Part shown: piece after piece, positions 5,088-12,766 of the stretch
Layout of the letters: each line of letters opens with the position of its first letter
Position numbering within the stretch: the first letter of the stretch is position 1
Virus record (IMG/VR): IMGVR_UViG_3300013285_000009
Location: 1 to 12,983 of that record
DNA from: a virus
Lineage: Duplodnaviria > Heunggongvirae > Uroviricota > Caudoviricetes
Direction: 5' to 3' (one strand)
DNA length: 12,983 nt
Notes under the pieces: generated by a model
Told to the model about the DNA's origin: nothing
What the model saw: only the letters and a program-made list of their open reading frames with translations
Databases searched by the model: none
Translations under genes and position numbers: made by a program

Positions 5088-5324
5088 ATGATGGAACATC
5101 CCTTCGTAAACAACTTGTCAGATAAGTCTTTGGAAGACTTACAGACTGATATATCATCGCTAACCGGTAAGTTAAACTTTGCTTACCGAATGAGCAATCA
5201 GGCGTTAGTGCAGCAATTGCAAATGGCTATCAACAGCTACCGATCAGAGTATGGTCGCAAAATGGATACCATGATGGCTAAGCAGAACATGAAGGAACAA
5301 ATTAGCATCCAAAAAGATAGCTAA
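5088..5324 (+). CDS. Small helical hypothetical protein
   Basis: 77-78 aa (tandem ATG at 5088 and 5091), 6 nt after the previous stop. Amphipathic, heptad-like sequence (LSDKSLEDLQTDISSLTGKL). Confidence 0.75.
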   Translation: MMEHPFVNNLSDKSLEDLQTDISSLTGKLNFAYRMSNQALVQQLQMAINSYRSEYGRKMDTMMAKQNMKEQISIQKDS

Positions 5325-5339
5325 TTTATCCCGAATACG

Positions 5340-5368
5340 TTGCAATCTGTCAACGTTTGTGTTATACT
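5340..5368 (+). promoter_or_regulatory. sigma70-type promoter with extended -10, probably giving a leaderless transcript
   Basis: TTGCAA (5340-5345), 17-nt spacer, TATACT (5363-5368), TG at 5360-5361. The ATG at 5375 is 7 nt after the -10 and no SD is present. Confidence 0.75.
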
Positions 5369-5374
5369 AGTCGA

Positions 5375-5881
5375 ATGAAAATAGATATGTATGGTCAGCA
5401 AATCTTCAATGAAGACGATTTGTGCAATTTAATGATGGGTGATCCTCAGGCTCAAGCCGAGCATGTACTTGTCGATCAACCCATCAGATTCGCCGAGATA
5501 CTATCTATTCGGAACGTACCAAACCTTCAAGTTTATAAATCATCTACGTTATCTGTAGATGCCTTTGATAAGGCAAATCAAGATAATTGGGCAATGCCTA
5601 ATGAATATAAAACGATGGATATTGCAAAATGGGTACTAGACCAGTGCAAGACGGAAGACGAACTACAGCGAGCCGGTGATGAACTTCTTAAATTTCATGA
5701 CCGAGACATGTTTGTATTGTTACAATATCTCAAATACCTAGTTGATACTATGCGTGAGCATAATATTGTATGGGGTGTCGGTCGAGGCAGTAGTGTGGCA
5801 AGTTTCGTATTGTTTCTTATCGGAATTCATAAGATCAATAGCCTGTATTACGGGCTTTCAATCGATGAATTTTTAAAATGA
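5375..5881 (+). CDS. dnaE: Stand-alone DNA polymerase III alpha (DnaE)-like fragment lacking the catalytic aspartates
   Basis: The C-terminal half RAGDELLKF...LKYLVDTMREHNIVWGVGRGSSVASFVLFLIGIHKINSLYYGLSIDEFLK aligns with the DnaE segment [35 protein letters not shown], without gaps from the GxGRGS motif onward. ATG 5375 is preferred over TTG 5357, which lies inside the promoter. TGA at 5879-5881. Confidence 0.82.
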   Translation: MKIDMYGQQIFNEDDLCNLMMGDPQAQAEHVLVDQPIRFAEILSIRNVPNLQVYKSSTLSVDAFDKANQDNWAMPNEYKTMDIAKWVLDQCKTEDELQRAGDELLKFHDRDMFVLLQYLKYLVDTMREHNIVWGVGRGSSVASFVLFLIGIHKINSLYYGLSIDEFLK

Positions 5882-5922
5882 CCGGCATAAATCACATTAA
5901 ATAATCTAACAAGGAGAAAATT

Positions 5923-6306
5923 ATGGCAATTCACAGAACAGCAATGGGTAAGTCAGTAGATATGGCTTCACTCTCTAGTAAAAATGAACTCACCCGAGCA
6001 GTCGGTAACATGAGTGTTAATGCGCGAGGTGACACGATTGATGCACACGGTCGTATCACTCAGTCTGCTACTACCAAAGTCAATGAGTTGTACTCACAAA
6101 CTGTAGGTAATAGATCAGCACAAGTTCGATCACGAGTCAATACAACACCGACCCCGGATGTAGCACCAGTGGCACCGGCGATTGACCCAACTGAATTAAA
6201 TGCAATCGAACTAGAGTTAGATAGTAACCTAGATGAAGAGCTTGAAATTGAAGCTATCAAGGCAGCAGAAGTAGATGTTGCTAAAACTAAACCAGCTAAG
6301 AAGTAA
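5923..6306 (+). CDS. Hypothetical protein with a Pro/Ala- and Glu-rich C-terminal half and a Lys-rich tail
   Basis: 127-aa ORF with a strong SD (aaggag 5911-5916) and TAAATA at 5898-5903. Confidence 0.8.
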   Translation: MAIHRTAMGKSVDMASLSSKNELTRAVGNMSVNARGDTIDAHGRITQSATTKVNELYSQTVGNRSAQVRSRVNTTPTPDVAPVAPAIDPTELNAIELELDSNLDEELEIEAIKAAEVDVAKTKPAKK

Positions 6307-6309
6307 TAT

Positions 6310-6678
6310 ATGACAAGACCGGCATACTCACCCACCCAAGTACGTAGTTTCAAACCGCTTGGTAAAACTATTGTAGTATCTGATATGAACTTTGATGAAC
6401 GTATTACTGCGAACGGTATTGTTCTATTAAACGATGACAAAAAATCTGCGGGTATCCGTCCTCGTTGGGCTAAGATTTACGCAGTTGGTCCGGAGCAGAC
6501 TGATGAGGATCTTCAAGTAGGTAAATATATTCTTATTAGTCACGGTCGATGGACACGCGGCATCACGATTGAAGATGAAACGGGTAAGCAGACATTGCGT
6601 AAAGTTGATCCTGATGATATACTATTAGTAAGTGACGAACCCGTCTCTGATGAAACAATGAGTACACAGGTATATTAA
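6310..6678 (+). CDS. groES: GroES/Cpn10-like co-chaperonin
   Basis: FKPLGKTIVV (GroES N-terminal strand), mobile loop RITANGIVL (GIVL at 6415-6426), AKIYAVGP, LQVGKYIL and DDILLV follow the GroES motif order. Confidence 0.8.
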   Translation: MTRPAYSPTQVRSFKPLGKTIVVSDMNFDERITANGIVLLNDDKKSAGIRPRWAKIYAVGPEQTDEDLQVGKYILISHGRWTRGITIEDETGKQTLRKVDPDDILLVSDEPVSDETMSTQVY

Positions 6679-6679
6679 T

Positions 6680-6997
6680 ATGAAATGGTTTGACAATTGG
6701 ATAGCAAGATGTTTGCAACGCCATCACCAAAGACACAATAACGAGTGTGAAGCAATGCCCGCAAGTCGTTATTCAAACACGCTCACCGGTTCTAAACGCG
6801 CCAATGCAAACGAATCTTTGCGAACTCGCGGTATGAACTTCAGCATTCATCCTGCATCCGGTGGTCATGTCTTAGAATATAATTCGTATAATAATAACAC
6901 AGATGAATACGAAAATACGCTGCATCTTATTCCCAGTGATGAAGATTTAGGTCAAACAATCGGTCATGCTATAACTTTAGAAATGTTGAGAAAATGA
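6680..6997 (+). CDS. Hypothetical protein
   Basis: 105-aa ORF starting 1 nt after the groES stop; its TGA overlaps the next ATG (ATGA 6994-6997). Confidence 0.75.
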   Translation: MKWFDNWIARCLQRHHQRHNNECEAMPASRYSNTLTGSKRANANESLRTRGMNFSIHPASGGHVLEYNSYNNNTDEYENTLHLIPSDEDLGQTIGHAITLEMLRK

Positions 6998-7923
6998 AAA
7001 GTAAATTGTGGGTAGAAAAATATCGTCCTTCAACAGTTGCAGATTACGTCTTTGTGGATGATAGACTAAAGCAACAGGTTGAGGGTTGGATAAAAGACGG
7101 TATGATACCTCACTTGCTATTGTCAGGTGATCCGGGCACAGGTAAAACCACCCTCGCTAAAGTTCTTATCAACGAACTGGGCGTGTCAGACTATGATGTG
7201 ATGGAAATTAATGCAAGTCGTGAACGTGGTATCGATATTGTCAAGAACAAGATCAACACCTTTGCACAGACGATGCCTTTCGGTCAGTTTAAGATCATTC
7301 TATTAGATGAGGCAGATTACACTACACCGGACTTCCAAGCTGCATTGCGTAGTGATATGGAAGCGTATGCTGATACAGTTCGATTTATTCTTACATGTAA
7401 CTATGAAGTAAAAATCATCCCTGCATTGCGTGAAAGTCGTTGCCACAAGATTCGAATCACTAAGCCAGATCGTAATGAATTTACGGCACGAGCAGCAACT
7501 GTACTGGTAACTGAGAACATTGAGTTTGACTTAGACACACTAGATAGCTATGTTCGGGTCTCGTATCCTGATTTGCGTAAGTGTTTGAATCAATTGCAAG
7601 TGAATAGCAGTACAGGTACATTGCTTCCACCGCAAGCGGCTGGTACTGGTGAAAGTGAACTACTAGTTGAAGCAACAGTGTTGTTTAAGGCAGGCAAGGT
7701 TCTCGAAGGAAGACAACAGTTGCTGCAATATATCGCATTATACCCGACGAGAATCGAAGACACCTATACTTGGATGTATCAGAATCTAGATTTGTGGGGT
7801 AAAGCACAGGAAACACGTGATGCAAGTATTGTCATCATCCGTAATGGTTTAGCATCGCTTCCACTAGTTGGTATAGCTGAGATATCACTGGCAGCAACTT
7901 TAGTGGAGTTGACTTCACTATGA
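6994..7923 (+). CDS. Sliding-clamp loader AAA+ subunit (RFC small subunit / T4 gp44-like)
   Basis: LWVEKYRP (RFC box II), Walker A GDPGTGKT (7126-7149), EINASRERGID, Walker B IILLDEAD, arginine-finger ESRC, sensor DLRKCLNQLQ. Confidence 0.95.
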   Translation: MKSKLWVEKYRPSTVADYVFVDDRLKQQVEGWIKDGMIPHLLLSGDPGTGKTTLAKVLINELGVSDYDVMEINASRERGIDIVKNKINTFAQTMPFGQFKIILLDEADYTTPDFQAALRSDMEAYADTVRFILTCNYEVKIIPALRESRCHKIRITKPDRNEFTARAATVLVTENIEFDLDTLDSYVRVSYPDLRKCLNQLQVNSSTGTLLPPQAAGTGESELLVEATVLFKAGKVLEGRQQLLQYIALYPTRIEDTYTWMYQNLDLWGKAQETRDASIVIIRNGLASLPLVGIAEISLAATLVELTSL

Positions 7924-11338: not shown

Positions 11339-11944
11339 ATGATCCTGCCTGCTAAAACACCGGGCACTCCTATAGCAGCAAACGATGCTGTACATGCTAC
11401 TCTAGTGAACGACCCGGCTATTACGCAATTTACCCCGACAACACCTGTTGCCCAACCTCTTTCGACTCCGCCCTCATCTATAATAACGGCACCGGTCAGC
11501 TTCGGCTCACCGATGAATTCAGGATTCGGTTCTCCTTCCTCTAGTAGCTTCGGCTCACCGATGCCCGGGGGCTTCGGTGGACAACCCGGCATGCCGGGAA
11601 TGAACGGGCAACTCGGAATGGGTATGAATTTAACTTCTGCGTCCCCTATGAATGCAGCCAGTGATGCAGAAGTATTAGTAAAGAATGATGCTGAATCTCG
11701 GCACTGGATTAACAGTAAATGGCGCCCTGCAATGGGATGGTTATATATGGCAACTTGCGCATTTGACTTTATTATTTTTCCTATATTATGGTCAGTATTA
11801 CAAGCTATTAGTAAAGGCTCAGTAACTAGTCAGTGGCAACCAGTCACATTACAAGGCGCCGGATTATATCATATTGCAATGGGTGCAGTTTTGGGTATTG
11901 CAGCATACGGTAGGACAAAAGAAAAGGTCTCCGGATCTGCATAA
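11339..11944 (+). CDS. Putative holin (resembling the GTA 3TM holin type) with a long low-complexity N-terminal extension
   Basis: The C-terminal ~80 aa has hydrophobic helices and the motifs WINSKWRPAMGWLYM..C.FDFIIFP and LYHIAMGAVLGIAAYGRTKEK. The WRP..GW and LG...GRT.EK pattern recalls the 3TM holin family. The exact start is uncertain because no SD is visible. Confidence 0.6.
   Translation: MILPAKTPGTPIAANDAVHATLVNDPAITQFTPTTPVAQPLSTPPSSIITAPVSFGSPMNSGFGSPSSSSFGSPMPGGFGGQPGMPGMNGQLGMGMNLTSASPMNAASDAEVLVKNDAESRHWINSKWRPAMGWLYMATCAFDFIIFPILWSVLQAISKGSVTSQWQPVTLQGAGLYHIAMGAVLGIAAYGRTKEKVSGSA
11498..11563 (+). repeat. 24-nt-period coding repeat (xFGSPxxx three times) with an exact 18-nt direct repeat
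   Basis: agcttcggctcaccgatg at 11498-11515 and 11546-11563, with a diverged middle copy ggattcggttctcct at 11522-11536. Confidence 0.85.
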
Positions 11945-11983: not shown

Positions 11984-12766
11984 ATGGATCATTACTCTAA
12001 TTTAGGTGTGGATAAAACTGCTACACCGGACGACATTAAAAAAGCTTATCGAAAGTTAGCAAGCCAACATCACCCTGACAAGGGCGGCAATACTGCTAAA
12101 TTTCAAGAAATACAAACATCATATGATACACTAAGCGATCCTCAAAAACGCGAAGAGTATGATAATCCTTCGCCGTTCGGTCCTCAATTTGGATCCCAAC
12201 AAGCGAATCCGTTTGCGAACATGCAGGACATATTCGGGCACATGTTTAGACAACATACACACCGGCCACAACAGCAGCAAGTTTACCGAACAAGTGTTTG
12301 GATCACACTTGACCAAGTCTATTCAGGTGGGAACCAAGTACTTAAACTACAAACACAAACCGGTACACATAACGTAACAATCGGCATACCTGTGGGTATT
12401 CAAGACGGTGGTCAAGTTCGGTGTGAAAATGTAATAGACGGTGCATCATTGCTAGTTGAATTTAGAATATCACCTCACTTAATTTATACTCGTAAAGGAA
12501 ATGACTTAGAATGTAATCAATCTATATCGGTGCTTGACTTAATTGTCGGTACATCATTCGAGTTTACTACACTGTCAGGTAAGACATTAGAAGTAAAAGT
12601 TCCACCGAAGACCCAGCCGTATGTACATTTAAAACTTGCAGGTTACGGACTACCTATCTTAAATTCAAATGCGTTCGGTGACCAAATAATCTTGCTAAAA
12701 TTGTTTGTACCGACTACAATAGATGATAGGATAATTTCTATCATCCTAGAATCTCAAGCTAAATAA
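11984..12766 (+). CDS. dnaJ: DnaJ/CbpA-like co-chaperone (J-domain plus C-terminal substrate-binding domain, no zinc finger)
   Basis: DHYSNLGVDKTATPDDIKKAYRKLASQHHPDKGG...FQEIQTSYDTLSDPQKREEYD is a J-domain with HPD. A G/F/Q-rich linker and a DnaJ_C-like region (IPVGIQDG, RKGNDL, GYGLP, GDQII) follow. No CxxCxGxG repeats. Confidence 0.93.
   Translation: MDHYSNLGVDKTATPDDIKKAYRKLASQHHPDKGGNTAKFQEIQTSYDTLSDPQKREEYDNPSPFGPQFGSQQANPFANMQDIFGHMFRQHTHRPQQQQVYRTSVWITLDQVYSGGNQVLKLQTQTGTHNVTIGIPVGIQDGGQVRCENVIDGASLLVEFRISPHLIYTRKGNDLECNQSISVLDLIVGTSFEFTTLSGKTLEVKVPPKTQPYVHLKLAGYGLPILNSNAFGDQIILLKLFVPTTIDDRIISIILESQAK

Follow-up and report, generated by a model that had tools for sequence, protein, structure and literature searches.

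A freshwater phage gene very likely encoding the N-terminal half of a split minimal DNA polymerase III alpha subunit

A gene near the left end of the viral contig IMGVR_UViG_3300013285_000009 resembles the bacterial replicase DnaE and stops just short of the residues that carry catalysis in that enzyme, and the question it raises is whether its product is one piece of a polymerase, a molecule that imitates or regulates the host replisome, or a broken remnant. The window analysed here, a stretch of 12,983 nucleotides, forms the left end of this 117,351-base contig, for which CheckV gives a completeness of 34 %, and its gene content is that of a T4-related jumbo phage (Table 1). The original prediction, made from the sequence alone, proposed either one part of a C-family polymerase divided into polypeptides which assemble without splicing, or a non-catalytic mimic or regulator of the host replisome, and took the locus for the best candidate for an undescribed system. 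As the best explanation, the gene, hereafter half 1, very likely encodes the N-terminal half of the split minimal Pol III alpha of the group 2.2 (Rak2 / PA5oct / Atu_ph07-like) jumbo phages, and there can be little doubt that it belongs to the split minimal Pol III family.

The predicted properties of the reading frame were confirmed on the sequence, including the 168-amino acid gene running from ATG 5375 to TGA 5879-5881, the position of the GVGRGS motif and the IDEFLK end. Readthrough of the stop codon would indeed add only two codons, with the TGA followed by CCG GCA TAA, and the next gene has the Shine-Dalgarno sequence of its own that had been ascribed to it (AAGGAG at 5911-5916, ahead of ATG 5923). 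ATG 5375 was taken as the true start because the homologues open with the same M-K, and a longer frame beginning at TTG 5357 is not needed. The statements that the gene has neither an intein-like end nor a full PHP domain also hold, with PF07733 being the only family found by Pfam in half 1, and with no PHP domain at all on the contig.

A profile search that did not hit the DNA_pol3_alpha family had been named as a result that would refute the original prediction. The search returned PF07733 (DNA_pol3_alpha) above its curated cut-off (E 2.2e-8; 34.5 bits; cut-off 23.9), with half 1 residues 88-167 aligned to profile positions 15-94 of 260 only. An alignment without gaps had been reported for the last ~35 residues; the absence of gaps stands, while the extent does not, as the likeness covers ~70 residues by sequence and ~100 by structure. 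In a gap-free alignment, the profile built from 57 homologues covers E. coli DnaE 322-392. The GVGRGS of half 1 falls on the GPGRGS of the E. coli enzyme, and the position of E. coli R390 is held by the conserved Glu of the ...EFLK end. The Glu noted at the R390 position in the original prediction is thereby a conserved acidic residue across the family.

Structural comparison extends this likeness further towards the N-terminus. Residues 69-168 of the AlphaFold (AF2) model (pLDDT 92.7) could be superposed with VIA-align on E. coli DnaE 277-393 (Z 9.3-10.8; rmsd 2.5-2.9 Å; 93-99 residues aligned) and match M. tuberculosis DnaE1 306-413, with the Pol III alpha structures of E. coli, M. tuberculosis and Thermus together giving Z 9.3-11.7 and rmsd 2.4-2.9 Å over 93-99 aligned residues. 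The best 16 rows of this search are all C-family polymerases, and the next unrelated row has a Z of 2.5. Foldseek alone gave E-values above 0.001, yet its best 18 rows are likewise all C-family polymerases, and the match was settled with VIA-align. As modelled, half 1 is the whole first palm subdomain, from just past the expected end of the PHP domain to the loop before the catalytic strand. The chain ends ahead of all three catalytic Asp residues (E. coli D401, D403, D555), and it contains the GRGS loop, by which the nucleotide triphosphate is bound in published DnaE structures. For residues 1-68 no DnaE counterpart was found by Pfam or by the structural match of the whole protein.

The length and the end of half 1 are shared widely. 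The family phrog_11127 matches half 1 from end to end (E 1.3e-40; residues 3-168 on profile positions 9-171 of 171), and an exhaustive search of 1.8 billion representatives yielded 654 clusters of homologues at E<=1e-10. Among the best 150 of these 654 clusters almost all are of 150-200 amino acids, and most end at query residue 168. Conservation of the breakpoint in relatives, which had been proposed as a check, is evident from the 57 aligned homologues, all of which end in ...[FY][LFM][KR] with 0-3 further residues, and from the gene copies extracted, 73/76 of which have an ...[FI][KR]-stop end. This common end corresponds to E. coli DnaE residue 392/393. G134, G136, R137, G138 and S139 are invariant in the 57 homologues. 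Amino acid identity is at most 47 % to the copies of isolated phages and 47-70 % to the best IMG/VR relatives. The dN/dS ratio, a further proposed check, was determined by the Nei-Gojobori method among the IMG/VR relatives and indicates purifying selection rather than neutrality, with most of the pairs of dS<1 falling at 0.06-0.14; when all pairs of dS<1.5 are taken together the median is 0.23, a figure inflated by saturation. A single metatranscriptome run contained only a 34-nt piece of the half 1 gene, with 4 differences, and provides no evidence of transcription.

The original prediction had advised a search for frames which begin near a (P)DIDxD motif. Three complete relatives, namely Sinorhizobium phage Phosso, Pseudomonas phage MIJ3 (PA5oct group) and Klebsiella phage fENko-Kae01 (Rak2 group), were searched whole. 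Each has one PF07733 match over the cut-off, ending at the same profile position; a weak further match in fENko-Kae01 at 62 kb (E 0.02), which contains stop codons, was set aside as chance. The Pol III finger profile, which matched weakly, led to frames of 191 and 210 amino acids opening with DIDIDF and DVDIDV, and the sought-for partner (half 2; ~190 amino acids) was in this manner found in the relatives. The gene following half 1 had been considered as a continuation of the palm, since the PF07733 alignment of fENko-Kae01 ran through the stop codon; this candidate was dropped when the DxD-bearing gene was found elsewhere, and the protein encoded downstream of half 1 has no Pfam family match. 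The search for PHP and finger pieces, also proposed, had a divided outcome. No PHP domain (PF02811) was matched on the contig itself or in the three complete relatives, with a control matching in 14/14 genomes, and the finger pieces are represented by half 2 only, weakly.

The half 2 family comprises 7,811 clusters at E<=1e-5, with lengths of 186-218 amino acids among the 120 listed. Its invariant residues (D6/D8/D10, H37, G40, K69/D71, R139/P140 and K168/H171/Y175) make up a DxDxD motif, an H..G element, the K-x-D with the third catalytic Asp, an R-P motif and the K..H...Y of the KSH finger motif. The family is colinear with M. tuberculosis DnaE1 at 412-424 (DIDIDF), 567-663 and 773-788. In the model of half 2 from the nearest relative (pLDDT 93.5), residues 1-187 match E. 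coli DnaE 397-776 (Z 8.2-8.5; rmsd 4.7-5.1 Å; 177-179 aligned) and Thermus 458-833 (Z 9.2; rmsd 4.4 Å; 184 aligned), with the next unrelated row at Z 3.1. Together the two halves tile E. coli DnaE 277-776, minus ~190 internal residues which are absent from half 2 and which, judged by their position in the DnaE alignment, would be the thumb and much of the fingers. By alignment, the parts of DnaE before 277 and after 776 are absent from the pair. Half 2 begins 3-10 residues before the DxD, and Pfam detects no intein domain in it. No intein fits between the two, because half 1 ends on a residue homologous to DnaE and half 2 starts just before the DxD.

Several lines of evidence indicate that the two halves belong together. 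Co-occurrence had been suggested as a check, and half 2 is present once in 8/8 large or complete relatives, that is, once per genome in the 3/3 complete isolates and exactly once in 5/5 IMG/VR relatives of 180-360 kb, as well as in 2/5 smaller fragments. A curated phage collection contains 99 records with half 1 and 96 with half 2, and the counts per genus are almost the same in both sets. The two genes are not neighbours, with half 2 found within 3 kb of half 1 in 0/80 loci and half 1 within 2.5 kb of half 2 in 0/80 other loci. The distance between them is 37-42 kb in the three nearest relatives with both genes, and in the nearest of these, whose half 1 is 68 % identical, the half 2 gene is on the same strand, 42 kb upstream of half 1. 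Co-folding of the pieces, another of the proposed checks, was performed with half 1 of the window and half 2 of this nearest relative, and gave an ipSAE of 0.92, versus 0.01 for the best of three controls; this mark was reached by 58/80 solved complexes and by 2/110 mismatched pairs. This pass may partly reflect the model's memory of solved full-length DnaE, and it pertains to the partner of a relative rather than that of the phage itself. The partner has a pLDDT of 92 in the co-fold, and the runs agree in at least 96 % of the contacts. Half 1 residues 129-142, which include the GRGS loop, are placed against the DxDxD strand of half 2 (residues 3-12), and the N-terminal residues 3-11, 28-31 and 61-74 of half 1 also contact the partner.

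On the 117-kb, 34 %-complete contig itself, the half 2 of Phosso as query found nothing at E<=1, phmmer --max with two half 2 proteins against all six-frame ORFs of the contig gave nothing better than E ~1, and a scan for D-x-D-x-D motifs returned only unrelated acidic stretches. By synteny, the half 2 of this phage most likely lies beyond the left end of the contig. Half 1 is situated 5.4 kb from that end, so that the expected place of its partner falls off the contig and the searches come back empty; as the contig represents a third of the genome, they are no evidence of absence. For this phage the pairing is thus inferred from its relatives.

The expectation of an undescribed system proved wrong, for the same split minimal Pol III alpha is presented, as a phage-specific enzyme of the group 2.2 jumbo phages, by Iyer, Anantharaman, Krishnan, Burroughs and Aravind (2021, Viruses 13:63; PMC7824862). 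According to the part of that paper drawn on here, the two genes lie far apart in a genome with no other Pol III domain, the same phages carry a family-B polymerase and an RFC-type clamp loader, the C-terminal unit is the Mg2+ and template-binding one, and the split minimal form may resemble an ancestral form. The N-terminal unit is the phrog_11127 protein that half 1 matches end to end, with the same breakpoint, and the group 2.2 setting is also the same, with a T4-like family-B polymerase and an RFC-type clamp loader on the contig. Nothing essential differs from what is described there, the copy here coming from an uncultured freshwater phage and having no partner gene on the contig. Neither a leaderless-type promoter nor a DEDD exonuclease gene beside half 2 was found in the same part of Iyer et al. 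2021 (PMC7824862). In GenBank, several phages have the two halves annotated as DNA polymerase III alpha or DnaE-like. The literature searched yielded no bench study of the enzyme, and genome papers go no further than naming a DNA polymerase III gene. The split arrangement is thus real, conserved and known from sequence since 2021, and the window holds one more, incomplete member.

With bacterial DnaE and PolC (PDB 2hnh, 5lew, 2hpi, 3f2b), half 1 shares the palm fold and the GRGS loop, and its partner the catalytic Asp residues of the DxD and KxD motifs and the RP and KSH finger motifs. The phage enzyme differs in consisting of two pieces, with chains of ~168 and 190 amino acids as opposed to ~1,160, in lacking a PHP domain and, by alignment, the thumb, clamp-binding and OB parts and the tau-binding tail, and in the acidic residue at the R390 position of half 1. 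Other divided polymerases exist. In cyanobacteria (Synechocystis and Nostoc DnaE-n and DnaE-c) a C-family polymerase is likewise encoded by two distant genes, the break there lying much further along and split-intein parts splicing the halves into one full-length chain. In the phage protein, by contrast, the break falls at the equivalent of E. coli residue 393, with no split-intein halves at the junction. The family-B polymerases include split forms as well, with gp43 encoded by two genes in some T4-like phages and a split PolB in some archaea; these polypeptides assemble without splicing, keep the full domain set and are usually encoded by genes close to each other. The phage Pol III likewise consists of two unspliced polypeptides, of an unrelated fold and family. 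Striking in the phage system is a bacterial replicase catalytic core cut to ~360 residues over two genes and under strong selection, the selection persisting in a very large phage group which already owns a different replicase. The split Pol III halves account for thousands of protein clusters in metagenomes, and the mini enzyme could show the minimum that a C-family polymerase needs to work.

In the preferred reading, half 1 would contribute to the Pol-beta-type palm its helices and the GRGS loop that binds the triphosphate, while half 2 (~190 amino acids) would supply the DxDxD strand with two catalytic Asp residues, the third Asp of KxD and the finger motifs RP and KSH. The break falls in the loop which connects the helix behind the G-S motif to the DxD strand, leaving neither chain with a complete active site, and the two chains must assemble into one active site non-covalently, given that there is no intein and no room for intein parts at the junction. 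Since the nucleotide- and metal-binding residues are invariant on both chains, the pair is probably an active nucleotidyltransferase, and the retention of the finger motifs argues for a DnaE-like handling of the incoming nucleotide. Beside the family-B replicase, the heterodimer may serve as a low-processivity DNA polymerase that takes part in repair, fills gaps or extends primers. The chances of the pair being a template-directed DNA polymerase are evenly balanced, and a low-processivity enzyme of this type which assists the family-B replicase is the most likely role, at roughly an even chance. Against this explanation were counted the absence of a PHP domain and, by alignment, of thumb, clamp-binding and OB parts as well as much of the fingers, together with the absence of the partner gene from the contig and the conserved acidic residue at the R390 position. 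Of the two possibilities raised in the original prediction, the C-family polymerase split without splicing is supported by the half 2 starting at DIDxD, the common breakpoint, the purifying selection and the co-fold.

The main rival explanation takes the same assembly for a specialised, non-replicative nucleotidyltransferase of Pol-beta fold, with activities such as untemplated addition, the making of a nucleotide product, or action on RNA or modified DNA. It draws on the pair's lack of what DnaE uses to hold DNA, namely the thumb, the clamp-binding and OB parts and much of the fingers, on the complete family-B replicase and clamp loader which the phage already has, and on a gene of the Rv2179c-like family, named in Pfam as a 3'-5' exoribonuclease, which half 2 abuts in one subclade. 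However, the RP and KSH finger motifs, which in DnaE deal with the incoming nucleotide and the template, are invariant, the fold match spans half 2 from end to end with only C-family polymerases scoring, and the exonuclease linkage is confined to that one subclade; a specialised transferase is considered unlikely. Very much less probable is that half 1, without a partner and without catalysis, serves as a mimic or decoy of the host replisome or regulates it, the second possibility of the original prediction. Half 1 by itself has no catalytic Asp, a promoter-like site of its own precedes it and the partner is not on this contig, all of which would suit such a role. A mere binding mimic would not need the nucleotide-binding loop, which is nevertheless invariant, and half 2 with its invariant catalytic triad is found in 8/8 large or complete relatives, with the co-fold burying the GRGS loop against the DxD strand. 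The invariance of the catalytic and nucleotide-binding residues in both halves disfavours the mimic, as does the presumed absence here of all the parts by which DnaE binds epsilon, beta and tau.

A fragment of a normally ~1,160-amino acid protein on an incomplete metagenomic contig might be suspected of being what decay has left of a full-length dnaE, or the product of a frameshift or of faulty assembly, and sequencing error had been named as a possible refutation of the split reading. The same length and end recur in hundreds of clusters, dN/dS is ~0.1, and no further piece of DnaE was found in the complete relatives. In two other freshwater samples, contigs show only substitutions over most of the gene, with no insertions or deletions in the parts covered and one contig crossing the stop codon; of the in-gene substitutions listed for run X2, 10/14 fall at third codon positions. 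Sequencing error and decay are thus excluded as the source of the short frame.

Modest additions to the known system are provided by a conserved promoter, a fixed gene order and an exonuclease gene beside half 2 in a subclade. The last is a DEDD 3'-5' exonuclease gene (Pfam Rv2179c-like; E 1.5e-30; L105:944-1498, plus strand) which overlaps the start of half 2 (L105:1495-2058) in the relatives closest to the window, with a similar arrangement in L100, L102, L103, L104 and many of L107-L186. It occurs within 2.5 kb upstream of half 2 in 58/80 loci and abuts or nearly abuts it in 33, while in other loci 200-900 nt separate the two genes. Phosso, MIJ3 and fENko-Kae01 yielded no Rv2179c-like gene, and one complete IMG/VR relative has the exonuclease gene 47 kb from half 2; the linkage was thus rejected as a general trait, being confined to the freshwater subclade of the window. 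In this subclade the two-piece mini Pol III and the exonuclease could conceivably form a three-protein, alpha-plus-epsilon-like proofreading polymerase, devoid of PHP, thumb and clamp-binding parts, which might extend primers or fill gaps beside the family-B replicase, although this is regarded as improbable.

The putative sigma-70-like promoter before half 1 ends 6 nt before the ATG. Considered alone, the consensus scan does not exceed chance, with 6 sites versus 4.4 expected. A -35/-10 pair close to the half 1 ATG is, however, kept in 44/76 sequences (the window and 75 relatives from loci L019-L098) under a strict rule allowing 4-10 nt to the ATG, the distance being 6 nt in most, and the spacer sequence has diverged among the relatives which keep the pair. 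There is no room for a Shine-Dalgarno sequence between the putative promoter and the ATG. Because the promoter ends 6 nt before the ATG, a leaderless or nearly leaderless mRNA is predicted, and the conserved pair suggests that such a half 1 transcript would be made by the host RNA polymerase.

The gene order around half 1 is fixed, with the 78-amino acid gene followed by half 1, the 127-amino acid gene, the groES-like gene and the clamp loader, and the order GroES-like to clamp loader is common to Phosso, the PA5oct group and the Rak2 group. In three cultured phages a small gene occupies the place of the 127-amino acid gene, and in fENko-Kae01 it is annotated as detected by LC-MS/MS. No PHP or Pol III finger profile was matched on the contig.

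Table 1. Features at and around half 1; positions refer to the window, except where a record prefix is given
Feature	Position	Strand	Basis or remark
Putative sigma-70-like promoter: TTGCAA, 17-nt spacer, TG-extended TATACT	5340..5368	+	consensus scan
78-aa gene directly upstream of half 1	5088-5324	+	kept in 78/80 relatives; weak PHROG match only
Gene very likely for the N-terminal (nucleotide-binding) half of split minimal DNA Pol III alpha (half 1)	5375..5881	+	168 aa + TGA
Phage-specific N-terminal extension, residues 1-68	5375..5578	+	outside the Pfam match and outside the structural match
First palm subdomain as modelled, residues 69-168 = E. coli DnaE 277-393	5579..5878	+	VIA-align and family profile
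GVGRGS, G-S loop of the Pol-beta-type palm	5774..5791	+	in frame with 5375; residues 134-139
127-aa protein, conserved N-terminus, acidic tail	5923-6306	+	phrog_14844; after half 1 in 79/80 relatives
GroES/gp31-like co-chaperonin	6310-6678	+	Cpn10 E 2e-5; phrog_931
RFC/gp44-type clamp-loader subunit	6994-7923	+	phrog_168 E 7e-72
Family-B DNA polymerase	G000:113908-115176	-	PF00136 E 2.8e-37

The remainder of the window encodes tail-fibre-like proteins with Ig-like repeats as well as PhoH, and a GH19-type lysozyme is matched weakly, short of the Pfam cut-off. An Ala/Thr/Asn-rich protein with imperfect repeats of ~18-20 amino acids and without a Pfam match is encoded at 1-910 on the plus strand and is probably a fibre; the long antisense ORF at 1-519 on the minus strand seems to arise merely from the composition of the repeats. 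On the plus strand at 11339-11944 a protein with a three-transmembrane, holin-like C-terminus (GTA_holin_3TM; E 3e-7) is encoded, and adjoining it, at 11984-12766 on the plus strand, is a gene for a full DnaJ, with both the J domain and the C-terminal domain.
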